Positions 2,989 to 55,146 of a DNA stretch of 64,000 nt are shown here, piece by piece; the stretch's first letter is position 1; each line of letters opens with the position of its first letter. Source of the DNA: Bacteroidales bacterium. GTDB lineage: Bacteria > Bacteroidota > Bacteroidia > Bacteroidales > UBA12077. Made by a program: the position numbers and the translations under genes. The stretch spans positions 867-64,866 of the forward strand of contig JAUWQL010000004.1 of assembly GCA_030611105.1 (NCBI GenBank), given 5' to 3'. The notes beneath the pieces are model-generated. The model saw nothing but the letters and a program-made list of their open reading frames with translations, ran no database searches and was not told the origin of the DNA.

Positions 2989-5097
2989 ATGGTTGATAAT
3001 AAACAAAATAGCAAAAAGCCAATTAATAGGCCAGGTTCAGATAAACCAAAACCAAAATTTAATGTTTACTGGATTTATGGATTAATAGCAGTAGTCTTTA
3101 TTGGATTACAACTTTTAAGTTTTACGCCAAAACCAACTGAAATTTCAATGCAGGAGTTTGAGCGTAATATGCTTAAAAACGGAGACGTTGCAAAAATTGT
3201 AGTTGTTAATAAAGAAAGAGCGAATATTTATATTAAAAAAGATCGATTAACCGATGCAAGGTATAAGGACTTACTTGAAAATAAGTTTGCTCGTACTTCT
3301 GAAGATGGACCACATTTTTTCTTCACCATTGGTTCAATGGAATATTTTGAGCGATGGATAAGCGAAGCTCAGGAGGATTATTTAAGAGGGGAGTATATAG
3401 AAATTAGTTATAAATCGCAACCTAATTATATGCGTGATATTATTGGATGGTTACTTCCAATATTTATTATTTTGGCTATATGGCTTTTTATTTTTAGAAG
3501 AATGTCGAAAGGTGGCGGTGGCCCCGGTGGAGGTAATATATTTAGTGTTGGCAAATCAAAAGCTCAGCTTTTTGATAAAGAAAGCGATATAAAAGTCGAC
3601 TTTAAGGATGTGGCTGGTTTAGAAGAGGCCAAAGTTGAAGTTCGCGAAATAGTTGATTTTTTAAAAACACCAAAAAAATACACAGATCTTGGAGCTAAGA
3701 TTCCAAAAGGAGTTCTTCTGGTTGGCCCTCCTGGAACAGGTAAAACATTAATGGCAAAAGCTGTTGCCGGCGAAGCTAATGTTCCTTTCTTTTCAATGTC
3801 GGGTTCCGATTTTGTTGAAATGTTTGTTGGAGTTGGGGCTTCGCGTGTTCGCGATTTATTTAAGCAAGCAAAAGAAAAAGCTCCATGTATCATTTTTATT
3901 GATGAGATTGATGCTATTGGTCGGGCTCGTGGAAGAAATCCAAATTTTGGTGCTAACGATGAACGTGAAAATACTTTAAACCAGTTATTGACCGAAATGG
4001 ATGGTTTTAGCAATAATGTTGGTGTAATAATTATGGCTGCTACAAATCGTGCTGATATTCTTGATAAAGCTTTAATGAGAGCAGGCCGTTTCGACCGTCA
4101 AATACATCTTGAGTTACCGGATATTAACGAACGAAGAGATATTTTCAAGGTACATTTAAAACCAATTAAAATGGAAAAAAACCTTGATATTGATTTTCTG
4201 GCAAAACAAACACCGGGATTTTCGGGTGCTGATATTGCTAATGTTTGTAACGAATCGGCATTAATAGCAGCCCGTAAGGAAAAGAAGACTGTTGAGCGCC
4301 AGGATTTTCTTGATGCAGTTGACAGGATAGTTGGTGGCATGGAGCGCAAAACCAAAATTATTACTAAAGAAGAAAAACGAACCATTGCATTTCACGAAGC
4401 AGGCCATGCCACTGTAAGTTGGCTGTTAGAGCATGCTCATCCTCTGGTAAAAGTAACTATTATTCCTCGCGGACGTTCATTGGGTGCTGCCTGGTATTTA
4501 CCCGAAGAAAGACAAATTACAACACGTGATCAGTTATTGGACGAAATGTGTGCTGCCCTTGGCGGAAGAGTTTCAGAAGAGTTGATGTTTGGGAAAATAT
4601 CGACAGGAGCAATGAATGATCTGGAAAAAATAACCAAGCAGGCTTATGCTATGATTGCGTATTTTGGAATGAGTGAAAAAGTGGGGCATGTGAGTTTTTA
4701 CGATTCTTCCGGTCAAACTGATATGACATTTACAAAGCCTTATAGCGAAAAAACTGCTGAACTTATTGATAAAGAAGTTAAGAATTTGATTGAAGAAGCT
4801 TATAAGCGTTCTTTTGAAATCTTAAAAAAACACAAAGATGGCTTAACTAAACTTGCAGAAATCCTTTTAGAAAAAGAAGTTATTTTCGCCGAAGACCTTG
4901 AAAAGATTTTTGGTAAACGTCCATGGAAAACTCAACATGAGAAGGAAGCCGAAGTAAGAAAGGAGCTTGAAGAGAAAAAGAAAAATAATAAATCTGCCCG
5001 CCAGTCTGCCTTGCCTCGCCGGCAGGCAGGCGACAAGGCAGGTCCGTCAGGAAGAAAAACAAAAGCTAAAAACCCTGTAAGCAAAAAGGGTAAGTAG
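2989..5097 (+). CDS. ftsH: ATP-dependent zinc metalloprotease FtsH
   Basis: Two TM segments, [20 protein letters not shown]; the C-terminal tail carries a 63-nt repeat insertion. Confidence 0.97.
4993..5055. repeat. Three nested 21-nt CCTR-hairpin elements in frame in ftsH
   Basis: Inner 5010-5030 cttg-cctcgcc-ggca-ggcagg; middle 5001-5009+5031-5042 (RC cctg-ccttgtc-ggca-gactgg); outer, decayed, 4993-5000+5043-5055. Confidence 0.75.
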
Positions 5098-5120
5098 AAT
5101 TTTGAATAAAATTTATAGAA

Positions 5121-5933
5121 TTGAGTAATTTAGTTCAACGCACCATAACCGGAATAATACTTTTAATAGTAGTAGTAGGTGCAATAACATTCGGGAAAAT
5201 AAGCTTTTTTATATTATTCGAATTAATAATAATTGGTGCACTGTATGAGTTTTATACATTAGCCGAAAAGAAAAAGTTTAATCCTTTAAAAGTTTACGGA
5301 ATAGTAATTGGCACAACAGTTTTTGCTGCCAATTATTTTTTTGTAAATGATTTGATAAGTGCTCAGGTATTCTTAGCAATAATTCCGATAGTAATAAGTG
5401 TTTTTATAATTGAACTCTATCGTAAGTCAGAATATGTTTTTTTAAATATTGGGTTTACTTTATTAGGTGTTTTGTATATCGCAATACCATTTTCTTTTGC
5501 AATTTACATTGTGTTTTCAGATGAAATAAATTACAATTCACATCTATTACTTGGCTTTTTCTTTTTAACATGGGCCTTTGATACTTTAGCTTATGTTTTT
5601 GGAGTGTCATTTGGTAAACATCGTTTGTTCGAAAGAATTTCTCCTAAAAAATCATGGGAAGGTTTTATTGGTGGAACATTGTCCAGTTTAGGTGTAGCTT
5701 ATGTAATATCAATTTTTTATACTGAATTGAGCTTTCTTCATTGGGCCGTATTATCAGTAATAATTTCAGTTTTTGGTACTTATGGCGATTTAGTCGAATC
5801 ATCTTTCAAAAGAAATATTGATGAAAAAGATTCCGGAAATATCTTACCGGGACATGGAGGTGTTTTAGATAGATTTGATGCCGTGTTGTTCACCTTGCCG
5901 CTATTTTATGTATATTTGCAGCTCATACAGTAA
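5121..5933 (+). CDS. cdsA: Phosphatidate cytidylyltransferase
   Basis: ISPKKSWEG, KDSGNILPGHGGVLDRFD; TTG start. Confidence 0.95.
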   Translation: MSNLVQRTITGIILLIVVVGAITFGKISFFILFELIIIGALYEFYTLAEKKKFNPLKVYGIVIGTTVFAANYFFVNDLISAQVFLAIIPIVISVFIIELYRKSEYVFLNIGFTLLGVLYIAIPFSFAIYIVFSDEINYNSHLLLGFFFLTWAFDTLAYVFGVSFGKHRLFERISPKKSWEGFIGGTLSSLGVAYVISIFYTELSFLHWAVLSVIISVFGTYGDLVESSFKRNIDEKDSGNILPGHGGVLDRFDAVLFTLPLFYVYLQLIQ

Positions 5934-5951
5934 CCCTTAATATTTTTTAAA

Positions 5952-6605
5952 ATGACTATACATAAAGAAGGACGGCCAATAGTTGCTCTGGTTTTTATTG
6001 TGTTAGTGGCTAGTAATCTACTAGTGTATTTTTTATCAAGTTATCTAATGTTAACATGGGCGATAGGTGTAGTATCCTTTTTATTTTTTTTATTTATTGT
6101 TCGTTTTTTCCGTAAGCCAAACAGACCATTAATTACAGATGACAATACTATTTATGCTCCTGCCGATGGTACTGTTATGGTGATAGAAGAAACCACTGAA
6201 GATGAGTATTTTAAAGATAAACGAATACAAGTATCAATATTTATGTCGGTTTGGAATATTCACATAAACTGGTTTCCTGTAGCAGGAATTATAAAATACT
6301 TCAAATATCACCCTGGCAAGTTTTTAGTTGCCCGCTTACCAAAATCTTCAGCAGAAAATGAGTGTACTACAGTTGTGTTAGAAGATAAAAACAAAAGACA
6401 AATTCTTGTAAGACAGATTGCCGGAATTCTTGCCCGACGAATTATTTCTTATGCCAAAGAAGGAATCGAAGTAAAACAAAATTCAGAATTAGGGTTTATC
6501 CGTTTCGGATCGCGTGTTGATGTTTTCTTACCGCTTGATGCAAAAATTAATGTTCAGTTAGGTCAAAAAACCAAAGGAACCCAAACAGTTGTTGCTACAT
6601 TTTAA
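5952..6605 (+). CDS. psd: Phosphatidylserine decarboxylase proenzyme
   Basis: APADG, IFMSVWNIH, GFIRFGSRVD cleavage motif. Confidence 0.93.
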   Translation: MTIHKEGRPIVALVFIVLVASNLLVYFLSSYLMLTWAIGVVSFLFFLFIVRFFRKPNRPLITDDNTIYAPADGTVMVIEETTEDEYFKDKRIQVSIFMSVWNIHINWFPVAGIIKYFKYHPGKFLVARLPKSSAENECTTVVLEDKNKRQILVRQIAGILARRIISYAKEGIEVKQNSELGFIRFGSRVDVFLPLDAKINVQLGQKTKGTQTVVATF

Positions 6606-7096
6606 TCAAAATAATTATCAATATTAATACGGTAGAGTTTTTCCTTATCGAAAATGAAAGTGTATTTTGTTCCTTCGCCTATCATTTGCAGGCTGTCTGA
6701 CTTAAATTTTAGATTATCTGAGAATCTACTTGTGAATTCATCTTTAGTTATTCCTACCCGAATACCATTCTTTAATACTATTTGTTTGTTTACAACTTTT
6801 CCGGCAAGTAAAAATTCTTGTCCCAGGTGAGTTTTATAAAAGAAAATTTCCGAATTTTTATAAGTAAACTGATAGATGGTATCTGTTTTTTCAGGATAGT
6901 GCTTGTTTTTTCGTAATAATTTTTGCGTATTAAATTTAGGTCTGGAAAGATTGGAGAAATTCTCTATGCTTTCTTTAAAACCAAAAGGATTTTCCAAAAA
7001 CTCTTTTTGACTTATAGATTTATATTCAATAGTTGACTTTTGAGAAGAGCATCCAAACAGGCTAATAATTAAAATAATTGTAAAATATTTTTTCAT
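6602..7096 (-). CDS. Hypothetical lipoprotein
   Basis: Lipobox LFGC after a hydrophobic signal. Confidence 0.7.
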   Translation of the reverse strand: MKKYFTIILIISLFGCSSQKSTIEYKSISQKEFLENPFGFKESIENFSNLSRPKFNTQKLLRKNKHYPEKTDTIYQFTYKNSEIFFYKTHLGQEFLLAGKVVNKQIVLKNGIRVGITKDEFTSRFSDNLKFKSDSLQMIGEGTKYTFIFDKEKLYRINIDNYFD

Positions 7097-7121
7097 ATTT
7101 AGCTAAAATACGAAGAAATAT

Positions 7122-8072
7122 CTATATAAAGAACAATGCAACACCGCCCACTGCTATAATTGATCCTATTACTTCTTTCAAAGTAATTTTTTCTTTAAAA
7201 AAGACAAGGGCCGGAGGTATAATTAGAACTGGAACAATAGCCATTATGGTTGATGCAACTCCTGTTGTAATGTGTTTTACCGAAAGCAACGAAAAAGATA
7301 CTCCAAGGAATGGTCCAAAAAAAGCACCTATGCTCAGTCGCGTCATTGCATCCCGATTCTTCATGGCTTCAATAACTTTTTTCCATCGTTTCATAAAAAC
7401 AAATATTATTGCAAAACCAACGAATCCGGTAATTACTCTAATTTGTGTTGCTGCAAAAGGATCAAAATCCTGCATTCCGTATTTACTCAAAACTAATCCC
7501 GCTCCTTGTCCGACAGCACCCCCAAAAGCAAGTAGAATACCTAAAACCGGATATGAAAGTTTAATTTTATTTCTCTTTCCACCTGCCCTGTCTGCCGAAT
7601 AGGCAGGATTCTTTTCTTCATTTTGAGTTTTAGATTTTCTATCCAGGACCACAATCATAATTCCCATAATGGTTAAAAACATTCCCAGTAAATTTTGAGG
7701 TGTTAGGGTTTCTCCCATTAAAAGCCATCCAAAAAAGGCTGTAATTGGAGGTGTAAGTGACATGATTAACATGGAAATGCGAGATCCAATTACAACGTAC
7801 GCTTCAAATAATAAAAGATCTCCAATTACAAATCCTACAAAACCGGATAGTGACAACCATATCCAATTATGAGCCGAAGCATCAAATGGTATAAATGAGC
7901 CACGGGTTACCTGACTGTAAATGCCAATAAAAATGAAAGCTATAAACAATCTTAAAAGGTTTGTCGATAATGATCCTACCTTTTTCCCTGCCGATTCAAA
8001 AGCTATGGCTGTTATTGTCCAGAATACGGCTGTTAGTAAAGCAGCGTACTCCCCTAAATGTGATTGAAACAT
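7122..8072 (-). CDS. DMT/EamA family transporter
   Basis: About 10 TM segments in two EamA repeats; the central loop contains a 21-nt element. Confidence 0.88.
   Translation of the reverse strand: MFQSHLGEYAALLTAVFWTITAIAFESAGKKVGSLSTNLLRLFIAFIFIGIYSQVTRGSFIPFDASAHNWIWLSLSGFVGFVIGDLLLFEAYVVIGSRISMLIMSLTPPITAFFGWLLMGETLTPQNLLGMFLTIMGIMIVVLDRKSKTQNEEKNPAYSADRAGGKRNKIKLSYPVLGILLAFGGAVGQGAGLVLSKYGMQDFDPFAATQIRVITGFVGFAIIFVFMKRWKKVIEAMKNRDAMTRLSIGAFFGPFLGVSFSLLSVKHITTGVASTIMAIVPVLIIPPALVFFKEKITLKEVIGSIIAVGGVALFFI
7587..7607 (-). repeat. 21-nt CCTR-hairpin element, codon-aligned in the DMT gene (PAYSADR)
   Basis: RC cct gcc tat tcg gca gac agg. Confidence 0.8.
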
Positions 8073-8199
8073 GATTTATTATTCTTTCCCCGATTTATAT
8101 TTCCAACAATATTTTATTATCGCTGAAAAAAACTTATTTTAGTTCAGATTTAAAATCTGATCAAAGCATTAGATATGAAATTTTAAGTAAAGTTTAATA

Positions 8200-9303: not shown

Positions 9304-9350
9304 GATAATAAAGTGGTATTTTATATATTTACGTGTCTAAATGTAAATTA

Positions 9351-9980: not shown

Positions 9981-10021
9981 TCACCCAAATTAATTTAATC
10001 ATTATACTATTTATACAGCAA

Positions 10022-10041
10022 TATGACAAATTGTTGTCATA
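10022..10041. promoter_or_regulatory. Perfect palindromic operator upstream of the cyd operon
   Basis: TATGACAA-attg-TTGTCATA; -7 box TATCTTTG at 10122-10129. Confidence 0.55.
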
Positions 10042-10147
10042 CATGCTTATACGACTATTTGTAGTTTAAAATGGCTTGATATTGGGAAATGCGTACCGTA
10101 TTACTTTTTTTAAATTTTCATTATCTTTGGTTAATAAATCTCATTTA

Positions 10148-10369
10148 ATGAAAAAAGGAAACATCTTTAAAAGAATATTTCTATTTTATTACGAAGGTTT
10201 TAAAAATATGACAGTTGGTAAAAGGCTTTGGTTTATTATCATAATAAAACTTTTTATCATGTTTGCCATTTTAAAGATATTCTTTTTTAAAGATTTCTTA
10301 AATAATAAGTTTGATACTGAAGAAGAAAAAGGGAATTATGTAATTGAGCAATTAACTAAGGGCTTGTAA
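10148..10369 (+). CDS. DUF4492 family small membrane protein
   Basis: FYYEGFKNMTVGKRLWFIIIIKLFIMFAILKIFFF, located upstream of cydA; stop codon supplied by the MITE. Confidence 0.88.
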   Translation: MKKGNIFKRIFLFYYEGFKNMTVGKRLWFIIIIKLFIMFAILKIFFFKDFLNNKFDTEEEKGNYVIEQLTKGL

Positions 10370-10520: not shown

Positions 10521-10540
10521 TAACCCTAAAAATACAAACA

Positions 10541-18432: not shown

Positions 18433-19545
18433 ATGGAAATAGCAAAATCAGCAATTTACAATTTCTTTCTTTTTTTACTTTTTTTATTACAAATATCTTG
18501 CTCACATCAAAAAAAGACTGATGTAAAACAAGATACTAATGTAAAATCAGAGAACGTAACAAAACGAGTTTCGGTAATTGAAATTGGTTCTCCTAAGTCG
18601 GGCGAGATGTTTACAATAGGAGATAATATAGAAGTGAAAATAGGATTGAAAGAATCAGATGTGAAAATAGATTCTTTAATTGTGGAATCAAATGGTTCTA
18701 AAACAGTTATAAACCCTGATAATTTAGATTATACATGGGAAACTAAAGATTTATATACAGGTGCTAATCAAATAAAAGTATTTGCATATTCGGGTAGCAA
18801 TAAAATAGATAGTTATTACTTGAAATTACGATTTAAATCAGATATTAAACCAGAGCAATATGAATGTAAAATTATAAATACATATCCACATGATAAAAAT
18901 GCGTATACACAAGGCTTGTTTTATGATAATGGAGTAATGTATGAAGGCACTGGACCAAGAGGCGAATCATCTTTAAGAAAAGTAAGATTTGAAACCGGAG
19001 AACTAATTTCAATTTTAAGCCTTGATGCTAAATATTTTGGGGAAGGTATAACAGCTTTTAAAGATAAAATAATTCAGTTAACCTGGACATCTCGTACCGG
19101 ATTTGTTTACGATAAAAAGAGTTTTAAATTAATTACAACTTTGCAATATCCTACGCAAGGCTGGGGGATTACAACCGATGGCGAAAAATTAATCATGAGC
19201 GATGGTACTCAAACGATACATTTTCTTGATCCGGAATATTTTAATGAAATTGGAAAAATCGAAGTTTATGACCATGAAGGGCCTGTTCGCAATTTAAATG
19301 AGCTTGAATATATTGATGGTATTGTTTATGCCAATGTTTATCAAACTGAATATATTGTTGCTTTTGATCTGACAAATGGGAAAGTATTAAAACGAATCGA
19401 TTGCAGAAAAATCGTTCCTAATGGTTTTCATGGAGAAAGAGACAATGTATTAAATGGTATTGCATACGATAAAAAAAATGACAGGTACTTTTTAACCGGA
19501 AAACGTTGGCCAAGTTTATTTGAAGTTAAGTTTGTGAAAAAATAA
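18433..19545 (+). CDS. Glutaminyl-peptide cyclotransferase (lipoprotein)
   Basis: YTQGL, YEGTG, FGEGI, QLTW, GWG, LNELE, VLNGIAY, TGKRW. Confidence 0.92.
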   Translation: MEIAKSAIYNFFLFLLFLLQISCSHQKKTDVKQDTNVKSENVTKRVSVIEIGSPKSGEMFTIGDNIEVKIGLKESDVKIDSLIVESNGSKTVINPDNLDYTWETKDLYTGANQIKVFAYSGSNKIDSYYLKLRFKSDIKPEQYECKIINTYPHDKNAYTQGLFYDNGVMYEGTGPRGESSLRKVRFETGELISILSLDAKYFGEGITAFKDKIIQLTWTSRTGFVYDKKSFKLITTLQYPTQGWGITTDGEKLIMSDGTQTIHFLDPEYFNEIGKIEVYDHEGPVRNLNELEYIDGIVYANVYQTEYIVAFDLTNGKVLKRIDCRKIVPNGFHGERDNVLNGIAYDKKNDRYFLTGKRWPSLFEVKFVKK

Positions 19546-19548
19546 GTA

Positions 19549-19590
19549 CAACGCGCATTTCTACCTGTCGGCAGACAGGCCTGCGCGTTG
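19549..19590. repeat. GC-rich hairpin with a 20-nt CCTR-hairpin element (19560-19579) in its loop
   Basis: caacgcgca-tt-[tcta-cctgtc-ggca-gacagg]-cc-tgcgcgttg. Confidence 0.78.
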
Positions 19591-19639
19591 AAAAAATGAG
19601 TTGTTAAATCATCGGATAGGAATGTCGGATGTGCAAATT

Positions 19640-22228
19640 CTAATTTGCAATTCTAAACGTGAGTTTCACAAGAAAAACATTGTATGGATGAATATTAAAT
19701 AAAGCATCAATATCATCATAAAAGGCAAAATCTCCCTGTCCAACACTCCCGGTTTTACTTTGAGTCCATACAAGATACAATAATGATCCGGGTCTGTATT
19801 CCCATCTTACAACTAAATTTGATCTGAATTGTCGGAAATTGAAATCGTAATCGTTTTCATAATCTTCAGTTGTAAAAGACATGTCTGTACTGTAACGATC
19901 TTCAAATTTATCGGCATTAGGATTTGTTATGTATTTTGGATCGGAATAATCTACAGCAGTGATAAAAGGAGATCCATAATATTGAATCGTCAATTCCGGT
20001 GTAATGGTGTAATCAATTCGTACTGTTAAATCGGTTGTAATTTGATCAATTTGAGCAAATATATACCTGTCCTCGTTATTGTATTCTTCTGTAGTTACAT
20101 ATTGTAATTCTCTGTTTGACACAGAATAACTTGGCATAAATGACAGCTTTAATGCATCGAAAGGACGATAAACAAGATCAATACCATACCAGGAACTCTT
20201 CCTGGAATTCTCGAATCCCCAATTGCTTCCTGTATTACCATAAACCTGTAGTTTTTTTCTACTATCTGTGCCAAAATGCATCCAATAATTAAAACTTCCG
20301 GGATATTTAATTGATGGCCCTCCTCTTAACATATCATTTTGAGTACTTTCGCCTTCAATATTTGTTCCTCCACCAAACGACCAATGATTTTTGAATTGCA
20401 TCCACATGTTAACATTTCCGCCATAAAAATTGTTGTTTAATCCAAAATCCCAGCCACTCCATTGATTAAAATTAAGACTCATATTTCTAAAAATACTAAA
20501 TGGTTCACTCCATCGGTATCCTGCCCAAAATACCTGGAATATAGCATCGGAGTGATGTAAAAAGCCAATATCGTTAGTTTCAAATTCAGGCGATCTCCAT
20601 GTAATCCAGGTCATCCATCTCCATTTACTACTTCCTTGTTTCCCTGCCTGAATTGTACCTGCATGGCCGGTCATTGAAGTAAGTGTAGAATCAAAAGTTG
20701 TATAATCGTTATCTGGTCGTTGAAAATATCTTCGTGATGATTCTTGTTGTGATATTATTGCAGTACTGTCACCTTGAATATGACTCATGGCATATTTTAA
20801 TGTTATGTAGTATTTTTTATCTTTTAAATATTGGGTGAAATCAATGCCTCCTGTGTATGCATCGGTATTTAAATAATCAAGATGATCATCATTTATAAAA
20901 CGATTTGTTGATGTAAACATACCTCCAATAATGGTATTGTTATCGTTTAGGTCTTTTTGAACTCTTGTAACAAAATAATTTGTTAGAGGCTCAACAGTTT
21001 CTTTTCTTCTTTCACCGTTATTATCAATCTCGGCCTTTTCTTCTGCTGTTACACTTTCGATAATCCCGATTGATAACCCGTTTTTCGTTTTGCCGGTTAG
21101 TTTTAGGGCACCTAAAATAGTTGTATTTTCCGGCACATCTGCATATTCATTATCGTTTAAACTTGGATAATAATGAGGAGCCCTGCCAATACGTCTTGAA
21201 TAAAATAAGTTATCACGAGCAAATGAGTTTCCTCCTCCCGAGAGTTGGAAATTTGTAATATTTCTACCTTCAATAAAGAAAGGTCGTTTTTCCTGGAAAT
21301 AAGTTTCAAAGGCGGTTAAGTTAACATCAGATGGGTCAGCTTCTACCTGTCCGAAATCAGGATTTATAGTAAAATCTAAAGTAAAATCGTTTGTAATTCC
21401 AATTTTACCATCAATTCCGGCACCAAAACTAGGTTCAAATCCTTTAGAAAATGGATTATCTTCATCTTTTGTATAAGATTCTGTTTTCGCAAGAATATAT
21501 GGTGATATTTCAATTTGGCGTTTTGGTTTAATATTTTTTATCCCGTGTAATTCACCAAAATGGCGAACCCATCCTGAAGCATCCTGAGAAAAATAAGACC
21601 AATGAGATTTTTCTTCGTTTCTGAAAAAGCGTCTGTTTACCTGAAAACCCCAAATCTGGTTTTCTTTGTGATTGCTAAATCGTAATTGAGTAAATGGAAT
21701 TTTCATTTCGGCTATCCAGCCAAGACTGTCAATGCTGGTTTCAAGATACCAAATCGGGTCCCAGGTTGAATCCCAACTATTACCATCGTTGCTTATCATT
21801 TCGTCTCCTTTCACTCCTGAAACGGATCCGGTAAATGAGAAGGCCGTACGTTTATCAAAATAACTATCAATATTTACTTCAACCCAGTCGCCATCAAATC
21901 CATCGCGACGAGACATGCGCCTGACAATTTTTTCAGGTTCGGTATCAAAAGCACGAATTAATATATACAGATTATCATCATCGTATAAAACTTTAAAAGC
22001 TGTTTCTTGTGAAGGGGCTTCTCCATCATTGGGTGATCGTTGTATAAAATCGCCTGACCATTCAACAATATCCCAAATGTCATTGTCAATTAATCCGTCA
22101 ATTTTAGGAGGCCCGTTACTAATTCTTTTAGTATTGTAAAATCTTTTCTCTGTGGTATTTTCTTGAGCAACAGCAGTAAACATTATAAAAATTAAAATTG
22201 CCGTAATAAATAAGTGTTTTGATTTCAT
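19640..22228 (-). CDS. DUF5916 / CBM9-like domain outer-membrane protein
   Basis: IDG...W, YDDDNLY, WIAEMKIPF, INPDFGQVEADP, EKRPFFIEG, FYSRRIG, VVRWEYRPGS. Confidence 0.85.
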   Translation of the reverse strand: MKSKHLFITAILIFIMFTAVAQENTTEKRFYNTKRISNGPPKIDGLIDNDIWDIVEWSGDFIQRSPNDGEAPSQETAFKVLYDDDNLYILIRAFDTEPEKIVRRMSRRDGFDGDWVEVNIDSYFDKRTAFSFTGSVSGVKGDEMISNDGNSWDSTWDPIWYLETSIDSLGWIAEMKIPFTQLRFSNHKENQIWGFQVNRRFFRNEEKSHWSYFSQDASGWVRHFGELHGIKNIKPKRQIEISPYILAKTESYTKDEDNPFSKGFEPSFGAGIDGKIGITNDFTLDFTINPDFGQVEADPSDVNLTAFETYFQEKRPFFIEGRNITNFQLSGGGNSFARDNLFYSRRIGRAPHYYPSLNDNEYADVPENTTILGALKLTGKTKNGLSIGIIESVTAEEKAEIDNNGERRKETVEPLTNYFVTRVQKDLNDNNTIIGGMFTSTNRFINDDHLDYLNTDAYTGGIDFTQYLKDKKYYITLKYAMSHIQGDSTAIISQQESSRRYFQRPDNDYTTFDSTLTSMTGHAGTIQAGKQGSSKWRWMTWITWRSPEFETNDIGFLHHSDAIFQVFWAGYRWSEPFSIFRNMSLNFNQWSGWDFGLNNNFYGGNVNMWMQFKNHWSFGGGTNIEGESTQNDMLRGGPSIKYPGSFNYWMHFGTDSRKKLQVYGNTGSNWGFENSRKSSWYGIDLVYRPFDALKLSFMPSYSVSNRELQYVTTEEYNNEDRYIFAQIDQITTDLTVRIDYTITPELTIQYYGSPFITAVDYSDPKYITNPNADKFEDRYSTDMSFTTEDYENDYDFNFRQFRSNLVVRWEYRPGSLLYLVWTQSKTGSVGQGDFAFYDDIDALFNIHPYNVFLVKLTFRIAN

Positions 22229-46924: not shown

Positions 46925-46943
46925 TAGTTTTATTGTAAAATAT

Positions 46944-47951: not shown

Positions 47952-47963
47952 AATTTGATAGAT

Positions 47964-50393
47964 ATGAAAAAAATAACTTTTTTATTACTTGCAACAATTT
48001 TAACAGGATCATGCTTGAATAAAGATAATAACATAAAAGATTATCCTGTTAAACCGGTAGCCTTTACAAACGTAAAATTTACAGACAATTTCTGGCTCCC
48101 ACGGTTAGATACAAATAGAATTATTACCATTCCTTATGATTTTAAAAAGTGTGAAGAGACTCATAGAATTGACAATTTTGCAATTGCAGGAGGATTACAG
48201 GAAGGATCTTTTGTAGGAATCAGATATAATGATTCCGATGTTTTTAAAGTTATAGAAGGAGCATCATACTCGTTGAATATCCATCCTGATCCGGAATTAG
48301 AAAAGTATTTAGATGGTTTAATTGCAAAAATTGCTGCAGCACAGGAAGATGATGGTTATTTATATACTTGCAGAACCATAAATCCCGACAGTTTACCACG
48401 GCATACAGGAGATACAAAATGGTCGCAATTAAAAGACAGTCACGAACTTTATAATATAGGACACATGTACGAAGCTGCCGTTGCATATTATCGGGCAACC
48501 GGTAAAAAATCTTTATTAGATGTAGCAATTAAGAGCGCAAATTTAGTTAATGAAATTTTCGGACCGGGCAAAGATCAGTTACATGGGGTTCCCGGGCATC
48601 AGGAAATAGAAATGGGCTTAGTAAAATTATACAGAGTTACTGCTGATGAAAAGTACTTAAAACTTGCCAAATATTTCTTAGATCAAAGAGGAAATGCCAA
48701 TGGCCATGAACTATACGTTTATGGCGAAGATGGAAATAACAAAGTATATACTCAGGATCATAAACTGGTTACTGAACAATTTGAAGCTATAGGGCACGCA
48801 GTAAGAGCCGTTTATATGTATTCCGGAATGGCAGATATTGCTGCTCTTACAAACGATAAAAAATACAATTCAGCAATTGATATTTTATGGAATAATGTAG
48901 TATCGAAAAAATTATATATTACCGGAGGAATTGGTTCTAAACATGCAGGTGAAGCATTTGGTGAAAATTACCATTTACCAAACCTGAGTGCTTATAACGA
49001 AACCTGTGCTGCTGTTGCCAATATGCTATGGAATCAAAGAATGTTCTTATTAAACGGAGATGCAAAATATATTGATGTTTTAGAACGTACTCTTTATAAC
49101 GGATTTCTTTCGGGAGTTTCAATTCACGGTGATAAATTTTTCTATCCGAATCCACTAGAATCTGATGGTAGCCACCAAAGAAAACCATGGTTTAGTTGCT
49201 CGTGTTGCCCTACAAATGTTGTTCGCTTTTTACCATCATTACCCGGATATGTTTATGCACACACAAAAGATGATTTATTTATAAATCTGTATATCGGGAA
49301 TAAGGCAAATATTAATATGAATTTCGGGGAAATAAGTATATCGCAAAGCACCGATTATCCTTGGGACGGAAATGTAAAAATCAATATTGAACCTGAAACC
49401 AAATCTAAATTTACTGTATCGTTAAGAATTCCGGGATGGGCTCAAAACAAACCCGTACCATCTGATTTATATTGTTATATGAATGAATCGGATCTGAAAG
49501 CTGTAATTAAAATCAATAACAAAGAAACTTCATACAATATTACCAATGGATATGCTAAAATAAACAGACAGTGGGAAAAAGGAGATATTATAGAAATTAA
49601 TTTCCCGATGCCTGTACGAAAAGTTGTTGCAAACAAAAAAGTTGAGGAAGATAAAGGGAAATTTTCTATTGAAAGAGGCCCTTTGGTATATTGTGCTGAA
49701 TGGCTTGATAATGGAGGGAAAGTACGAAATCTGTTATTAGATAAAAATACTGATTTTACATATGAATTTAAAGAAAACCTAATTAACGGTGTTAATATTT
49801 TAAGAGGAATGTCAAAATCGTTATCCATCGATAAAGCAGGTAATTCTACAATAGAAACAGAACAAGATTTTATTGCTATTCCATATTATGCATGGGCTCA
49901 CAGGGGGAATGGCGAAATGACAGTGTGGTTTCCGTACGAAAAATCGGCAACTAACCCGACTCCACCACCAACTATAGCATCTGAAAGCAAGGTGTCTGCA
50001 TCTTATATTTACGATCAAGTTTTGGCAGTTAACGACCAGATTAATCCTAAAAACTCTAACGATCATGATATTCCAAGGTTAACATTTTGGGATCATAAAG
50101 GAACAACAGAATGGGTACAATATGATTTTAAAGAAGAAACAATAATTAGTAATATTCATATATATTGGTTCGATGATGGGCCTGATGGTGGTTGCAGAGT
50201 TCCTGAAACATGGAAGGTAACATATCTGAAAAACGGTGAATGGAAAGAAATATCAACACATGGTGAATATCCGGTTTTAAAAGATGAGTTTACTTCTATC
50301 GAAATTTCTAACGTAAGAACAAAATCGATGAAGTTAGAAATTAAACTACAGGAAAACTTTTCCGGGGGTATTCTCGAATGGAAACTTGATTAA
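47964..50393 (+). CDS. GH127 family glycoside hydrolase (lipoprotein) with C-terminal extra domain
   Basis: Lipobox TGSC; DSDVFK, HELYN, GHAVR, YNETCA, CSCCPTN, RGPLVY, IPYYAW. Confidence 0.92.
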   Translation: MKKITFLLLATILTGSCLNKDNNIKDYPVKPVAFTNVKFTDNFWLPRLDTNRIITIPYDFKKCEETHRIDNFAIAGGLQEGSFVGIRYNDSDVFKVIEGASYSLNIHPDPELEKYLDGLIAKIAAAQEDDGYLYTCRTINPDSLPRHTGDTKWSQLKDSHELYNIGHMYEAAVAYYRATGKKSLLDVAIKSANLVNEIFGPGKDQLHGVPGHQEIEMGLVKLYRVTADEKYLKLAKYFLDQRGNANGHELYVYGEDGNNKVYTQDHKLVTEQFEAIGHAVRAVYMYSGMADIAALTNDKKYNSAIDILWNNVVSKKLYITGGIGSKHAGEAFGENYHLPNLSAYNETCAAVANMLWNQRMFLLNGDAKYIDVLERTLYNGFLSGVSIHGDKFFYPNPLESDGSHQRKPWFSCSCCPTNVVRFLPSLPGYVYAHTKDDLFINLYIGNKANINMNFGEISISQSTDYPWDGNVKINIEPETKSKFTVSLRIPGWAQNKPVPSDLYCYMNESDLKAVIKINNKETSYNITNGYAKINRQWEKGDIIEINFPMPVRKVVANKKVEEDKGKFSIERGPLVYCAEWLDNGGKVRNLLLDKNTDFTYEFKENLINGVNILRGMSKSLSIDKAGNSTIETEQDFIAIPYYAWAHRGNGEMTVWFPYEKSATNPTPPPTIASESKVSASYIYDQVLAVNDQINPKNSNDHDIPRLTFWDHKGTTEWVQYDFKEETIISNIHIYWFDDGPDGGCRVPETWKVTYLKNGEWKEISTHGEYPVLKDEFTSIEISNVRTKSMKLEIKLQENFSGGILEWKLD

Positions 50394-50405
50394 TTCTTAA
50401 ACATA

Positions 50406-50445
50406 TCTACCTGTCGCCTACCTGACGGCAGTCAGGGTAAACAGG
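50406..50445 (+). repeat. Nested pair of 20-nt CCTR-hairpin elements
   Basis: tctacctgtcg[cctacctgacggcagtcagg]gtaaacagg. Confidence 0.85.
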
Positions 50446-50466
50446 CAATAGAATGATTATATCAAA

Positions 50467-50561
50467 AATATCAAATATCGAACAAGGAATAATGAATTAC
50501 GAAGTAAAAAAATGAAGTAAAAATTTCATTATTCGATATTCGGTGTTCATTATTCGATATT
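50467..50561. repeat. Inverted heptad-periodic repeat
   Basis: aatatca aatatcg aacaagg aataatg aattacg; RC of right arm aatatcg aataatg aacaccg aatatcg aataatg. Confidence 0.7.
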
Positions 50562-50603
50562 TATAAATAACAGAACATGAATGAACTATAAAAATATAAA
50601 CAG

Positions 50604-51719
50604 ATGAAAGGAAACATTTTAAAATTCGCATTATTCTTTTTGTTAATATCAATTTTTTCTTGTACAAGAGAAAACAAAAACAACAATATGAAAAAAGAAT
50701 TAAAAACCTTTATCCTGTCGAATAAAACCAATTGTTCTGTTAAAATTACAAATTTCGGGGCAAAAGTTATGTCAATAAATGTGCCTGATAAGAATGGTAA
50801 TATTGATGATGTTGTATTAAGCTACAATACTCCTGAAGAATATATTAGTGGAAATCCATACTTTGGAGCAATAATAGGACGATACGGAAACCGGATTAAT
50901 AAAGGGAAATTTGTTTTAAACAACACGGAATATTCTTTAGCTACCAACAACGGCAACAACCATCTTCATGGTGGGCCAAATGGTTTTCATAATGTAATTT
51001 GGGAGGTGGTAGAATATAAAAACGATGATGATCAACATTTTGTAAAATTCAAATATTTCAGTAAAGATGGCGAAGAAGGATATCCGGGCAATTTAACTGT
51101 TTATGTAAAATATTCATTTACCAACGAAAATGAATTAATAATTGATTATGATGCTACATGCGATAAAACTACAATTATTAATCTTACTCATCATTCATTT
51201 TTCAATCTTAAAGATGCAGGAAAATCTGATATTCTTGAACATGAGTTTAAAATTTTTGCCGACAGTTATACTCCTGTAAACAATGAACTAATTCCTACAG
51301 GACAAATACTAAAAGTAAAAGAAACTCCAATGGACTTCACTAAATTTACAACTATAGGCAAACGAATTAACGAGGAATATGTACAGCTTCAATATGGAAA
51401 AGGCTATGATCATAACTGGGTTTTAAATAAAATATCAGATTCATTAAGCTTGGCTGCAATTGTTCGTGAGCCTGTTTCGGGCAGAAAAATGGAAGTATTT
51501 ACTACAGAACCGGGATTACAATTCTACTCCGGCAACTTTCTTGATGGTTCCGATATTGGAGAAGACAGTACAAAATATAATCACAGAACTGCATTTTGTC
51601 TGGAGACACAACATTTTCCTGATTCTCCAAATCATAAAAATTTTCCATCAACAGTACTTGAGGCAGGGAAAGCATATAAACAAAAAACGATATATAAATT
51701 TTCAACCTATCTGCCCTGA
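50604..51719 (+). CDS. galM: Aldose 1-epimerase (galactose mutarotase)
   Basis: GRYGNRI, HLHGG, EEGYPG, NLTHHSFFNL, YDHNW, CLETQHFPDSPN. Confidence 0.93.
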   Translation: MKGNILKFALFFLLISIFSCTRENKNNNMKKELKTFILSNKTNCSVKITNFGAKVMSINVPDKNGNIDDVVLSYNTPEEYISGNPYFGAIIGRYGNRINKGKFVLNNTEYSLATNNGNNHLHGGPNGFHNVIWEVVEYKNDDDQHFVKFKYFSKDGEEGYPGNLTVYVKYSFTNENELIIDYDATCDKTTIINLTHHSFFNLKDAGKSDILEHEFKIFADSYTPVNNELIPTGQILKVKETPMDFTKFTTIGKRINEEYVQLQYGKGYDHNWVLNKISDSLSLAAIVREPVSGRKMEVFTTEPGLQFYSGNFLDGSDIGEDSTKYNHRTAFCLETQHFPDSPNHKNFPSTVLEAGKAYKQKTIYKFSTYLP

Positions 51720-51745
51720 CTGCCGTTAGGCAGGCGATAGGCAAG
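51706..51745 (-). repeat. Nested pair of 20-nt CCTR-hairpin elements supplying the galM stop codon
   Basis: RC cttgcctatcg[cctgcctaacggcagtcagg]gcagatagg. Confidence 0.85.
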
Positions 51746-51763
51746 ATAATTAAATAAACAATT

Positions 51764-53329
51764 ATGGATTTTGGAACTATAGATTTCATAGTATTTGCTT
51801 CGTATTTACTCCTAATAATTTTTATTGGTTTGTGGGTATCACGAACAAAAAAGGGCGAAAAGAAAACCTCGTCAGATTATTTTCTGGCAAGTAAATCGTT
51901 ACCATGGTGGGCAATTGGGGCATCGCTTATAGCAGCAAATATTTCTGCCGAGCAATTTATTGGAATGTCGGGTTCGGGATATGTTATTGGTTTAGGAATA
52001 GCTTCTTACGAATGGATGGCAGCAATTACATTAATTATTGTTGCAAAATATTTCTTACCTATATTTCTTGAAAAAGGAATTTATACCATGCCTCAATTTC
52101 TCGAATTAAGATTTGATAACAGAGTTAGAACAAGCCTTGCTGTATTTTGGTTGTTAGTTTACATTTTTGTAAATCTTACATCGGTGCTTTATTTAGGCGC
52201 ATTAGCATTACAAACCATAATTGGAGTAAAGTTAATATACGGCATTATTGGTTTGGCTCTTTTTTCGGCAATTTATTCAATTTATGGTGGATTAAAAGCA
52301 GTAGCATGGACAGATGTTGTTCAGGTAATATTCTTAATTGGAGGTGGATTAGTTACAACATATTTGGCTTTGGATTATTTAGGTGGTGAAAAAGGTGCTT
52401 TTGCCGGTTTTGGAAATTTGTTACATCAGGTTCCCGAGAAATTCGATATGATACTTGATAAGACACACTCAAATTACCCTGAATTACCGGGTATATGGGT
52501 TATATTAGGTGGTATGTGGATAGCGAATATAAGTTATTGGGGATGTAATCAATATATAATTCAACGAGCTTTAGCTGCTAAAAGCCTTAAAGAAGCACAA
52601 AGAGGCTTAGTTTTTTCGGGATTTTTGAAGATAATTATTCCATTAATTGTTGTAATACCTGGTATTGCAGCTTTTGCACTTAATGCCGACATTACAAAAC
52701 CCGATGAGGCGTATCCATGGTTATTAGACACTTTTGTTGTATCAGGACTAAAAGGATTAGCATTTGCTGCTCTGATTGCAGCTGTAGTATCGTCATTAAG
52801 CTCGATGATAAACAGTACTTCTACGATTTTTACAATGGATATCTATAAAAATTATTTCAATAAAAATGCTTCTGAAACAAACCTGGTTACAACAGGTAGA
52901 ATTACAAGCGGAGCAGCGTTATTAGTAGCTGTATTAGTCGCCCCACAACTTGTAACACTCGAACAGGCATTTCAATTTATTCAGGAATTTACCGGTTTTG
53001 TAAGTCCCGGAATTGTTGCAATATTTATTGTAGGATTATTCTGGAAAAGAGCAACATCAAATTCAGTTCTTTGGGCAGCACTAACAACAGTTCCATTATC
53101 GTTTGGATTTAAATTTTTAACTCCCGATATGGCATTTCTTAACAGAATGGGATTTGTATTTCTTATTTTATTGGCTATAATATTTTTCATTTCAATAATT
53201 GAAAGCAAAACAGATGACCCTAAAGGAATAGATATTAGCAAAAAACTATTTCATACAGGTACAAAATTTAATATATCTGCAATAGGTATTTTAATTATTT
53301 TATCTGTTTTATATACTTTATTTTGGTAA
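51764..53329 (+). CDS. Sodium/sugar symporter (SSS family)
   Basis: DYFLASKSLPWW, NISAEQFIGMSG, YWGCNQYIIQRALAAK. Confidence 0.93.
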   Translation: MDFGTIDFIVFASYLLLIIFIGLWVSRTKKGEKKTSSDYFLASKSLPWWAIGASLIAANISAEQFIGMSGSGYVIGLGIASYEWMAAITLIIVAKYFLPIFLEKGIYTMPQFLELRFDNRVRTSLAVFWLLVYIFVNLTSVLYLGALALQTIIGVKLIYGIIGLALFSAIYSIYGGLKAVAWTDVVQVIFLIGGGLVTTYLALDYLGGEKGAFAGFGNLLHQVPEKFDMILDKTHSNYPELPGIWVILGGMWIANISYWGCNQYIIQRALAAKSLKEAQRGLVFSGFLKIIIPLIVVIPGIAAFALNADITKPDEAYPWLLDTFVVSGLKGLAFAALIAAVVSSLSSMINSTSTIFTMDIYKNYFNKNASETNLVTTGRITSGAALLVAVLVAPQLVTLEQAFQFIQEFTGFVSPGIVAIFIVGLFWKRATSNSVLWAALTTVPLSFGFKFLTPDMAFLNRMGFVFLILLAIIFFISIIESKTDDPKGIDISKKLFHTGTKFNISAIGILIILSVLYTLFW

Positions 53330-53385
53330 AACAAGTAACCTATAATAACGCAGAAGTTTGCATTTTTAGAGGTTGCCATAATTTT

Positions 53386-54540
53386 ATGATAAAAGAAAAA
53401 ATTTACAAGCAATTTAAAGCAAAATTCGAAGGTGAACCAATAATGGTAGAGTCGCCGGGAAGAATAAATCTTATAGGTGAACATACTGATTATAACGATG
53501 GATTTGTTCTCCCTGCTGCTATAGATAAATACATTTATATAGCAATAAATAAATCTGAAGATAATTCGTGCAATGTATTTTCATGCGATTTTAATGAATC
53601 TGTTACATTTCAGATAGATACGCAACAGAAATCTGAAAAACACTGGGCAAATTATTTAATAGGTGTTATTAATGAAATTGGTAACAGAGGAAAAAAGTTA
53701 AATGGTTTCAATCTTGTTTTTGGAGGAAATATACCAATCGGTACAGGATTATCATCATCGGCTGCCTTGGAAACAGGTTTGGCTTTTGCTTTAAACAAAC
53801 TATTTAATCTGGGATTCAATACACTTGAACTAATAAAAATGTCGCAAGATGCCGAAAATAATTTTGTAGGTGTAAATTGCGGAATTATGGATCAGTTTGC
53901 TGCAATAATGGGCAAAAAAAATCATTTTGTAAAACTCGATTGCCGAAGTCTGGAATTCGAATACTTTCCTTTTAAAACCGATAACTATCAACTATTACTC
54001 TGCAATAGTAATGTTAAACATAGTTTGGTAGATTCGGAATATAACGACAGAAGACTGGAATGCGAAAAAGGAGTGAAAATATTAAGTAGGTATTTAAATA
54101 ATATTACCAAATTACGTGATGTTTCATCGGAGGAATTGGAAAACCATAAGGCAGATTTTCCCATAAGTACATACGAGAAATGCTCTTATGTAATCGAAGA
54201 AAACTCAAGACTAATCGAAGCGTGCGAGCAACTAAACAATAAAAACTTAAGCTATGTCGGGAAGTTGATGTATGAAACTCACGAGGGTTTAAAAAATAAA
54301 TATAAAGTAAGTTGTAGCGAACTTGACTTTCTTGTCGATTTTACAAAACAATACAATGAAATACCAGGCTCAAGAATGATGGGTGGAGGATTTGGAGGTT
54401 GTACTATTAATCTCATAAACAAAGATTTTAAGAAAGATTTTATTCAGCTAATTTCTGAAGCATATAAAGAGAAATTTAATATCGAAGCCGAATTTTATAA
54501 TATTAATATTGTTGATGGCACAAGAATAATCGAAATATAG
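53386..54540 (+). CDS. galK: Galactokinase
   Basis: PGRINLIGEHTDYN, PIGTGLSSSAA, CGIMDQ, GSRMMGGGFGGC. Confidence 0.95.
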   Translation: MIKEKIYKQFKAKFEGEPIMVESPGRINLIGEHTDYNDGFVLPAAIDKYIYIAINKSEDNSCNVFSCDFNESVTFQIDTQQKSEKHWANYLIGVINEIGNRGKKLNGFNLVFGGNIPIGTGLSSSAALETGLAFALNKLFNLGFNTLELIKMSQDAENNFVGVNCGIMDQFAAIMGKKNHFVKLDCRSLEFEYFPFKTDNYQLLLCNSNVKHSLVDSEYNDRRLECEKGVKILSRYLNNITKLRDVSSEELENHKADFPISTYEKCSYVIEENSRLIEACEQLNNKNLSYVGKLMYETHEGLKNKYKVSCSELDFLVDFTKQYNEIPGSRMMGGGFGGCTINLINKDFKKDFIQLISEAYKEKFNIEAEFYNINIVDGTRIIEI

Positions 54541-54555
54541 GATTCCATATATATA

Positions 54556-54586
54556 AGACCTTAAGGTTTTTTAAACCGTAAGGTCT
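54556..54586. repeat. Intergenic double palindrome (same architecture as 17828)
   Basis: agaccttaaggtttt-ttaaaccgtaaggtct. Confidence 0.55.
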
Positions 54587-54744
54587 AAGTTAAAATAAAA
54601 AAATCCGGTGCAGTTATAAATATTTAACTACGCCAGACTTCCTGTATTATTTAGTATTTCAAAAAACCTTATCTTTTTGGTTTAGGCTTATAAATAAAAA
54701 AAGGATGTGAAATTATTGAAGAAGTTTGAATAAAAAAGCCAGAC

Positions 54745-55146
54745 CTAAATCCAGCTGTTATAATTTCTGAAGTCGATAAAAATTTCGCTGGTTTTATTTT
54801 CTTTTACAATGAATTTCCCCTTGATTGATTTGCTGGGTTCTCCGTTATACGAATAAACTTTAACCTCATAAGTATGTACACCTGCTTCCAGTTTTTTCTT
54901 CAGTTTGAACGTGGTGTTAGTTCCTGCCTCCGGAAAATCACTGTTATTATTTAAAGATCCAAGCTTTTTTTGATCAACGTAAATATCGATATCAAAAGAA
55001 CTATTCATTATATCCTGATTCGTTTCGAAAGAAACTTCTCCGATTTTCTGATCAACCCTGCCTGCCGGACAGGCAGGCTGTTCCTCCATTTCACAACTTA
55101 GAAGCAATGTAATAAGCATTATTCCTATGAATTTTTCAGGTTTCAT
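54745..55146 (-). CDS. Hypothetical lipoprotein
   Basis: Lipobox LLSC; ECF-like promoter GCAAC-N17-CATC at 55177-55202 (minus strand). Confidence 0.72.
   Translation of the reverse strand: MKPEKFIGIMLITLLLSCEMEEQPACPAGRVDQKIGEVSFETNQDIMNSSFDIDIYVDQKKLGSLNNNSDFPEAGTNTTFKLKKKLEAGVHTYEVKVYSYNGEPSKSIKGKFIVKENKTSEIFIDFRNYNSWI
55057..55077 (-). repeat. 21-nt CCTR-hairpin element, codon-aligned in the lipoprotein (PACPAGR)
   Basis: RC cct gcc tgt ccg gca ggc agg. Confidence 0.85.

Follow-up and report, generated by a model that had tools for sequence, protein, structure and literature searches.

A 20/21-nt hairpin unit in a Bacteroidales genome, gained and lost as exact blocks, nested in its own loop and shared with other phyla

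Short hairpin units at six loci had been noticed in a stretch of 64,000 nt from a Bacteroidales bacterium (contig JAUWQL010000004.1, positions 867 to 64,866; referred to as the window), and we analyzed this 20/21-nt unit, named E, in the source genome of the window (G000), in its relatives and in distant lineages. E is a real repeat family whose units are gained and lost exactly, without duplication of the target, and nest in each other at a fixed position. Within the genus of the window the two lengths are sorted by coding status, and the same unit occurs across phyla and in phage sequences. That E is a mobile element filtered by selection we consider highly probable. Its movement by an enzyme of the RAYT type (transposases associated with repetitive extragenic palindromes, REPs) is suggested by analogy and appears to us slightly short of an even chance, the remaining probability resting mainly on another mobiliser. 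The joint reading, in which a tiny non-autonomous mobile element is sorted by selection, moved in trans by a RAYT-type Y1 transposase and either horizontally spread or very old, we regard as evenly balanced.

Structure, copies and length of unit E

E is composed of the tail CCTG, the left arm CCTGNC, the loop GGCA and the right arm GNCAGG, which together form a 4-nt tail, a 6-bp stem and a loop in 20 nt. Most copies by far have the tail CCTG, and CCTA or TCTA is found in some copies of the window. In 21-mers one base is added in the left arm between CCTGCCT and CGGCAG, and the variant CCTGCCTGCCGGCAGGCAGG is a perfect 20-nt palindrome. At all six window loci the shared architecture of tail, stem and loop was read just as the sequence-only reading had described it. 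The core CCTNNCGGCAGNNAGG gave 3 matches in the window at ≤1 mismatch compared to 0.07 expected, with 0 of 100 shuffles reaching 3, and an Rfam scan of the whole window returned 0 families at gathering thresholds. The units and the features belonging to them are:

4993-55077, strand not applicable: the whole finding, ten E units at six loci
4993-5055, minus strand: three-level E nest, 3 x 21 = 63 nt, in the C-terminal tail of FtsH, encoding 21 residues
5010-5030, no strand assigned: innermost 21-mer of the FtsH nest
7587-7607, minus strand: 21-mer in the central loop of an EamA transporter, encoding PAYSADR
7578-7586, minus strand: decayed right-arm duplicate of 9 nt beside the EamA unit, encoding AGG, from the nucleotide comparison with G002 and G005
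19560-19579, plus strand: 20-mer with tail TCTA, perfect 6-bp stem and GGCA loop, between convergent open reading frames (ORFs)
19549-19589, plus strand: host hairpin with E in its loop, 9-bp stem 19549-19557 / 19581-19589
50406-50445, plus strand: two-level 20-mer nest in an intergenic spacer, outer copy decayed (loop GGTA, right arm AACAGG)
50417-50436, plus strand: inner 20-mer of this nest, placed after the first G of the outer loop
51706-51745, minus strand: two-level 20-mer nest at the 3' end of the putatively aldose-1-epimerase-like ORF 50604-51719
51715-51734, minus strand: inner 20-mer of this nest, stem with one A-C mismatch
55057-55077, minus strand: 21-mer in a small lipoprotein-like ORF, encoding PACPAGR directly after the signal peptide

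Length and position of these copies correspond as had been claimed: units of 21 nt lie in the FtsH, EamA and lipoprotein-like ORFs, and units of 20 nt are intergenic or located at a stop codon. In FtsH (ORF 2989-5097) the nest lies past the conserved domains (TIGR01241, 809 bits, residues 33-637 of 702). For EamA (ORF 7122-8072, minus strand, with PF00892 matching two stretches) a length of 21 nt holds for the unit itself and not for the whole insert, which amounts to 30 nt with the 9-nt arm remnant. Within the lipoprotein-like ORF, which spans 54745-55146 on the minus strand, the unit forms a hairpin of 8 bp and a 5-nt loop with a folding energy of -8.8 kcal/mol. ORF 50604-51719, named by eye from its translation, is terminated by a TGA within the E nest. 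The single 20-mer at 19560-19579 reaches -5.8 kcal/mol (z -5.2) as single-stranded DNA and lies in a stretch of 89% identity to G002; its host hairpin (fold of 19545-19592, -15.6 kcal/mol, z -5.4) has a terminator-like location between ORFs 18433-19545 on the plus and 19640-22228 on the minus strand.

We scanned the source genome (3,774,987 bases, 217 contigs, 31.5% GC) with templates by Hamming distance, using limits of 1, 2 or 3 mismatches. The exact core matched 65 times, perfectly palindromic copies being counted on both strands. At ≤3 mismatches the 20-mer template gave 187 matches compared to 1 in the reversed genome, and best assignment yielded 189 non-overlapping E loci. The variable stem position forms an A-T, T-A or C-G pair in 60 of the 65 exact cores, indicating that stem pairing is kept and confirming the covariation first noticed among the window copies.

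A unit was counted as coding when an ORF of at least 100 aa covered it, which is a measure of ORF length rather than a gene call. At ≤1 mismatch (99 loci) the 20-mers of G000 were distributed 53/5 between non-coding and coding positions compared to 15/26 for the 21-mers (Fisher p=7e-9), and at ≤2 mismatches the figures were 64/5 and 30/44 (Fisher p=1e-11). Three of the five "coding" 20-mers at the stricter limit are situated no more than 5 codons from the end of the ORF. The closest relatives, G002 and G005, together showed 29/3 for 20-mers and 8/16 for 21-mers (Fisher p=1e-5), so that the prevalence of 21-mers in coding sequence and of 20-mers outside, anticipated from the window copies, was observed genome-wide in G000 and repeated in both relatives. 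These counts suggest that selection sorts E by length: 20-mers would survive only outside genes or at gene ends, and 21-mers and 42-nt doublets would survive in genes, mostly in a frame free of Cys and in linkers or tails.

The copies within genes are in frame and contribute 7 residues each, in agreement with the heptapeptides proposed earlier. The xC-CTG frame is used by 17 of the 26 coding 21-mers of G000 and yields the Cys-free sequence L-P/S-A-x-x-Q/K-A-G, the other two frames giving PACPAGR-like or CL-like peptides; these frame counts are partly dependent, some copies being repeats of one 42-nt composite. The 21-mers comprise a few recurring forms and for this reason look like propagating sub-lineages rather than one-off errors; these forms are encountered again in relatives and in other phyla.

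Empty sites, nests and the site of insertion

E-bearing loci of G002 and G005, with flank identities of about 90-95%, were mapped by their flanks onto G000, resulting in 29 pairs. G000 lacked exactly the unit or units in 12 of them. Eight are single-unit empty sites of 20 or 21 nt (L159, L163, L166, L177, L182, L194, L197 and L203), with complete 20-mers standing in unrelated AT-rich unique sequence at L163, L166 and L177, and four are empty sites of 42 nt (L161, L196, L200 and L202). E was present in both genomes in eight pairs, two of which (L167 and L183) differ by a 9-nt arm duplication; the remaining pairs showed irregular gaps (5/29) or had no usable alignment (4/29).

An exact empty version was also found for three of the six window loci. 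The innermost FtsH unit at 5010-5030 is precisely missing in G005, where the outer 42 nt are kept (pairwise alignment, locus L369). The unit at 55057-55077 is precisely missing in the same relative, leaving the empty site ...TTCGAC|CTGTTCC.... At 51706-51745 a contig of another sample (run X3) connects position 51703 to 51745, by which 41 nt are skipped. At the EamA site a unit of 21 nt is found in G002, one of 18 nt in G005 and none in 9 more distant aligned orthologues. Clean empty sites of exactly 20, 21 or 42 nt, as expected of a mobile unit by the sequence-only reading, were thus recovered in close relatives, and none of them displayed a target duplication, at most one G being ambiguous; the absence of target duplications surmised from the window was borne out. 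The metagenome runs, represented by Logan contigs and not by raw reads, contained hints of variation within populations in the form of one 41-nt skip and one contig with 22 gap letters. An assembly artefact or an adapter is ruled out by E in isolate genomes, by its in-frame position in conserved genes and by the clean indels between relatives.

Of 41 exact 20-mers, 26 are preceded by G and 13 by A, position -2 is never G, and the following base is mostly T, or G in nests. Many insertions are located at an AAG|TT-like site. G000 contains eight canonical nests, each with the inner unit inserted at CG|GCAG, directly behind the first G in the loop of the outer unit. Seven of them combine two different stems, and at L182 and L197 the inner unit alone is missing in G000; together these observations show that the nests are insertions and not products of slippage. 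In the window the same position had been assigned to the nests, which stands for 50406-50445, 51706-51745 and the inner two FtsH levels, with no clean fit for the outermost FtsH level. A second type, a 21-mer at CCGGA|CGGG of another 21-mer, occurs five times in G000 as a 42-nt composite and again in relatives.

The idea that hairpin loops are targeted in general received partial support. E sits in its own loop, in loops of REPs and in one terminator-like loop; the enrichment of stems in the flanks is modest, stems of at least 7 bp being found around 4 of 52 non-nested non-coding units compared to 1.8% of controls. As for heptamer repeats, the program TRF placed an array of period 7 near only 1 of 99 units, and a custom measure of the flanks detected a period-7 context in 7 of 56 units compared to 0.7% of control positions. 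E is gained or lost in blocks of exactly 20, 21 or 42 nt, usually after a G and with its own loop (CG|GCAG) as a favoured target; it is also present in loops of other hairpins (other REPs and one terminator-like) and between the units of short heptamer arrays.

Short tandem heptamer arrays around a subset of the units were seen in G000, for example at C135:22120-22190, C39:7230-7300, C50:8640-8710 and C74:20380-20440. Their units are, for example, tttcaag, taaaaag/tacaaag or actttag, and E is placed between them. Similar arrays lie beside E in other phyla (L096, L105, L086 and L068).

Distribution and candidate movers

The exact 20-mer is present in 34 of 37 genomes of the window's genus (0 in the reversed control). 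In an even sample of high-quality genomes of the window's phylum it was found in 68 of 301 genomes and 52 of 144 genera, with 1 match in total in the reversed control and a patchy occurrence at the level of families. The family names of the proteins of G000 and the type of its RAYTs would fit a placement of this phylum in Bacteroidota. In the phylum of a complete 0.9-Mb WWE3 genome, belonging to the Candidate Phyla Radiation (CPR), 37 of 151 genomes carried E, up to about 20 copies in 0.8 Mb, compared to 0 in the reversed control. A scan of one genome per species located E at no fewer than 120 loci. The lineages among the matches listed include Bacteroidota, many CPR, Omnitrophota, Planctomycetota, Gamma- and Deltaproteobacteria, Bdellovibrionales, Nitrospirota, Chloroflexota and others, and the isolate genomes among them include records of Winogradskyella, Flagellimonas, Flavobacterium and Gaetbulibacter. 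One deltaproteobacterial metagenome-assembled genome gave 82 strand matches (palindromic copies counted on both strands), and viral contigs carry E at 67 loci, some with several copies. This spread over phyla and phages had gone unnoticed in the sequence-only reading. The contexts recur in distant genomes, namely hairpin loops, heptamer arrays, nests and tRNA-like sequences, and in the deltaproteobacterial genome G056 E lies inside a REP hairpin.

By analogy with known HUH systems, E may move as a single-stranded hairpin that a HUH tyrosine (Y1) transposase of the RAYT type would cut and paste in trans, the 5' CCTG acting as guide tetranucleotide by pairing with the 3' CAGG end. Nearly invariant across phyla, E would be either horizontally spread or very old, and many copies would subsequently hitch-hike within larger genome-specific repeats. 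The earlier description as a minimal non-autonomous element fits a non-coding family that is present or absent in exact blocks.

A link to RAYTs is provided by the protein P0005 of G000 (contig C181, 176 aa; NF047646 at 97.5 bits with a cut-off of 80), whose gene is flanked on both sides by E in a single orientation at about 45-65 nt from the ORF. The sequence flanking these two E copies is found nowhere else in G000. E likewise flanks the homologues of P0005 in G008 and G046 on either side, and RAYT genes of G006 and G009 contain 21-mers in frame. For subclass 2.4, PMC6006769 reports REPs inserted in frame within the RAYT gene. In the CPR sample a RAYT-like gene was present in 22 of 37 E-positive compared to 43 of 114 E-negative genomes (odds ratio 2.4, p=0.023, with no correction for phylogeny or genome completeness). 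For the suggested enzyme encoded elsewhere, the RAYT flanked by E in three genomes of the genus is a candidate whose link to E lacks generality in other carriers.

Several results weigh against a RAYT as the mover. The E copies next to the RAYTs of G008 and G046 are located inside the loops of larger REPs that belong to these RAYTs, and the adjacency may accordingly reflect only the preference of E for hairpin loops. In five other genera rich in E, 0 of 11 RAYT loci had E within 1.5 kb; the figures were 0 of 12 in four distant genomes and 1 of 30 in CPR, in this last case an E-like sequence that deviates by 1 mismatch and lies at a distance of about 650 nt. Within the genus about 24 of 29 loci with P0005 homologues are without E, and P0005 itself is without a close orthologue, the best match outside G000 being 53% identical. 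RAYTs are present in 22 of 23 E-rich and in 25 of 28 E-free genomes of the window's phylum, and a Y1_Tnp match (E-value ≤0.01) was absent in four E-bearing CPR genomes of unstated completeness: G380 with 11 copies in 0.7 Mb, G432 with about 20 copies, G425 and G490. All-against-all BLAST of 1392 ORFs from 187 cross-phylum and viral loci retrieved no gene family recurrent near E, the largest cluster comprising 6 loci. The tail of E is CCTG, compared to GT[AG]G or CGTC in REPs. No strand-specific or single-stranded intermediate of E was observed, and beyond the genus the sorting of 20- and 21-mers is a weak, non-significant trend (20-mers 76/22, 21-mers 14/9, p=0.12).

Alternatively, E might be mobile and moved by an agent other than a resident RAYT, such as an unrecognised enzyme, a nuclease or ligase of phages or plasmids, or a host activity on single-stranded hairpin loops, with the adjacency to RAYTs being a side effect of insertion into REP loops. 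This we consider possible but doubtful. It accommodates the E-rich genomes without a Y1 match, the scarcity of E near RAYT loci, the position of E in the RAYT's own REP loop and in the REP hairpin of G056, and the viral loci, some of which bear multiple E. Near-identity of E across phyla would also be more readily explained by a partner that is conserved or universal than by RAYTs, which co-evolve with lineage-specific REPs according to PMC6006769. Against it, the search for a candidate gene was negative: none of the gene families is recurrent near E, tblastn with 11 Y1/RAYT proteins matched only 4 of the 187 loci and in no case directly beside E, and no obvious enzyme was seen in the dense E clusters of G063, G303, G423, G057 and G271, where the ORFs were left unannotated. 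Moreover a 5' tetranucleotide, a hairpin and the lack of target duplication make up the anatomy of a HUH substrate, the RAYT on C181 has E on both sides within flanks unique to that site, the association in CPR is positive, if modest, and the lack of Y1 in some CPR genomes may reflect incomplete genomes or relic copies of E. A bolder proposal, unlikely in our view, would make E the smallest bacterial transposable unit so far, spreading nearly frozen between phyla and phages, moved by a conserved host or phage function on single-stranded hairpin loops without depending on a dedicated resident transposase, and generating heptapeptide inserts through its 21-nt variant even in essential proteins such as FtsH.

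Many E copies lie within larger genome-specific repeats, including families in G000, and in G063, G303 and G271 E is the core of larger local repeats. Such copies, the near-invariance of the 20-mer over very distant phyla and the window copy in a terminator-like hairpin between convergent ORFs might be taken to indicate that E is a selected functional site, for example a protein binding site, a terminator or an mRNA-stabilising hairpin, copied mostly by hitch-hiking or recombination. We find this improbable, since units of exactly 20 or 21 nt are present or absent in unrelated unique contexts including essential genes, since a selected site is not expected to pile into its own loop, since inner and outer stems differ in the nests, since the in-frame copies lie in protein linkers with decaying sequence, and since Rfam found no match in the window.

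That the pattern arose not by insertion but by slippage during replication, or by duplication that palindromes drive in (CCTG)n/(CAGG)n-like sequence, is very improbable and contradicted as the sole cause. The 9-nt arm duplications polymorphic between close relatives (L167, L183), the repeats consisting of the right arm only (14 right-arm-after compared to 8 full nests in G000) and an ancestral form that is a perfect (CCTG)2CC/GG(CAGG)2 palindrome speak for it. Slippage can neither place an entire 20-mer within AT-rich unique sequence unrelated to it (L163, L166, L177) nor yield nests in which both arms of the inner and outer stems differ (7/8), and it leaves unexplained why one 20-mer occurs in hundreds of unrelated genomes with 0-1 matches in the reversed controls. 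It does act as a secondary process on existing copies, creating the 9-nt arm duplications.

G000 has at least 8 RAYT-like genes, most of which are flanked on both sides by their own palindrome in the classical REPtron layout:

C27:26217-26684, RAYT-like paralogue
C93:2096-2524, RAYT-like paralogue
C127:11157-11564, RAYT-like paralogue
C119:9067-9492, RAYT-like paralogue
C50:2262-2780, RAYT-like paralogue
C30:8991-9490, RAYT-like paralogue
C30:5862-6044, RAYT-like paralogue
C7:28374-28697, RAYT-like paralogue

With their distinct palindromes they constitute several separate REPtron-like loci in one 3.8-Mb genome. In the RAYT ORF of G009 (C15, locus L315) the E-encoded LPVRQAG is located between the tyrosine of the catalytic motif and the following IHNNP, where it probably affects activity. 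A 150-aa Y1 protein is encoded at C21:7192-7622 of G000; its translated part P0006 (118 aa) ends with ...REYIKNQE, like RAYT subclass 1.2, which according to PMC6006769 occurs at low copy in Cyanobacteria and Bacteroidetes. One E copy is situated about 70 nt upstream of this gene inside the loop of another hairpin. Strong matches of the P0006 type were found neither in the 3 E-free genomes of the genus nor in 8 E-bearing ones.

Comparison with known repeats and further observations

E works like REPs and like the small dispersed repeats (SDRs) of Nostocaceae. With REPs it shares a short GC-rich hairpin with an unpaired tetranucleotide 5' of it, a high number of copies that are dispersed and largely extragenic (20 nt, 189 loci, 53 of 58 20-mers outside long ORFs) and no coding capacity, and one bona fide RAYT in G000 is flanked by it. 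Bacteroidetes RAYTs (subclass 2.6) and class 3 genes are associated with atypical structures lacking GT[AG]G as stated in PMC6006769, and in-frame REP copies within genes are described in PMC3733652 and PMC6006769. E differs in size, its 20 nt falling short of the 21-65 nt given in PMC6006769 and just reaching the lower limit of the 20-40 bp given in PMC3733652. Its single units insert precisely, nest in their own loop and are sorted by length according to coding status. Most RAYTs in E carriers are not flanked by E, some carriers are without a Y1 gene, and E is spread over many phyla, the REPtron feature being found in three genomes only; REPIN-RAYT systems (REPINs being pairs of inverted REPs whose larger hairpin is duplicated as one unit) are described as mostly vertically inherited (bioRxiv 10.1101/2022.05.22.493013). 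In a manner that recalls REPINs, 42-nt composites of two units recur and are gained or lost as one block (4/29 pairs), and single E units also move alone (8/29 pairs).

IS200/IS605 elements and their gene-less derivatives, the palindrome-associated transposable elements (PATEs), resemble E in the lack of target duplication, in combining a hairpin with a 5' guide tetranucleotide and in inserting by a short target. The chemistry of IS200/IS605 and REPs, as outlined in PMC6006769, involves a guide tetranucleotide 5' of the hairpin foot and single-stranded DNA substrates. Unlike E, which is a single hairpin of 20 nt, these elements extend over hundreds of bases with two distinct subterminal hairpins. 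Miniature inverted-repeat transposable elements measure 70-300 bp and have terminal inverted repeats and a target duplication, in contrast to the 20 nt of E without duplication.

The repeats SDR4-6 of Nostocaceae were reportedly described by Elhai et al. (2008, Genome Res). Similar to E they are mobile repeats of about 21-27 nt with hairpin potential that insert precisely at a short site. SDRs also nest and occur next to heptamer arrays. To our knowledge no gene is associated with them. SDR5 inserts between nucleotides 3 and 4 of HIP1 as described in PMC4390886, and SDRs are, in the account of PMC5861425, reported only in Nostocaceae. E in contrast is found in Bacteroidota-like, CPR, Omnitrophota, Planctomycetota, proteobacterial and phage sequences. 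Mobile GC-rich hairpins that invade genes and each other are also present in AT-rich yeast mitochondrial genomes as GC clusters and byp elements. These are organellar and eukaryotic, and byps are bypassed by the ribosome rather than translated; we know of no sequence relation between them and E. Rickettsia palindromic elements (RPEs), roughly 100-150 bp in size, share with E their in-frame position within genes. The genes carrying RPEs are probably still functional according to PMC3733652. RPEs differ from E in being restricted to Rickettsia and are not known to show a 20/21 dichotomy or self-nesting at one set position of the loop.

Minimal size, clean empty sites of single units, fixed-site self-nesting, 20/21 sorting and cross-phylum spread are what is unusual in E. 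A full-text literature search for E sequence strings returned no paper; an earlier description is possible, as published lists of atypical REPs and SDR sequences were not compared. RAYTs are regarded as the movers of REPs and REPINs, but insertions of single units have rarely been documented cleanly. The E family offers many pairs of exact empty and filled sites for a 20-nt unit with a defined target (G|, CG|GCAG), which makes REP-type mobility directly testable with oligonucleotides and one small protein. The split between 20 and 21 nt probably illustrates how selection filters insertions of a mobile element by reading frame, and real proteins such as the FtsH tail, a transporter loop and RAYTs receive inserts of 7 or 14 residues from it. 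The same 20-mer is present in about a quarter of the sampled genomes of two very distant phyla, including CPR genomes of 0.7-1 Mb, and in phage contigs. This would not be expected of REP-like repeats, which are considered specific to their lineages and inherited vertically, and it suggests either horizontal transfer of a tiny element or a conserved partner. In practice, E units cause small indels in orthologue alignments and disrupt the annotation of tRNA-like sequences and repeats.

Distances between orphan left and right arms displayed no preferred longer spacing, and no large element bounded by E arms was found. In G063 (C2:1198000-1234500, L413-L414) E forms the core of longer repeats in the spacers of one gene cluster, with 15 copies in 36 kb, and in other genera it lies inside tandem repeats of 192 nt and about 290 nt (L415 and L418). 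This occurrence in local and tandem repeats of other genera suggests amplification by hitch-hiking.

In CPR and Bacteroidales records E was also encountered inside tRNA-like sequences next to normal tRNA genes, either in the D-arm or just 5' of the T-arm (L013:2000-2120, L036:4020-4100, L074:2100-2160, L064:3615-3700 and L416:6760-6830). ARAGORN called no tRNA for these E-bearing sequences, which may be broken tRNAs, fragments or tRNAs able to tolerate or remove the insert. In the window, about 127 nt of the intergenic region 54540-54745, which precedes the lipoprotein-like ORF, are not contained in the orthologous contig of G005 (query gap 54602-54729). Finally, the summed contig depth of the bin 50382-50575 was about 10-300x that of the neighboring bins in all four metagenome runs (137-333), which suggests that the spacer around the nest at 50406-50445 holds a multi-copy sequence or one common to many organisms.

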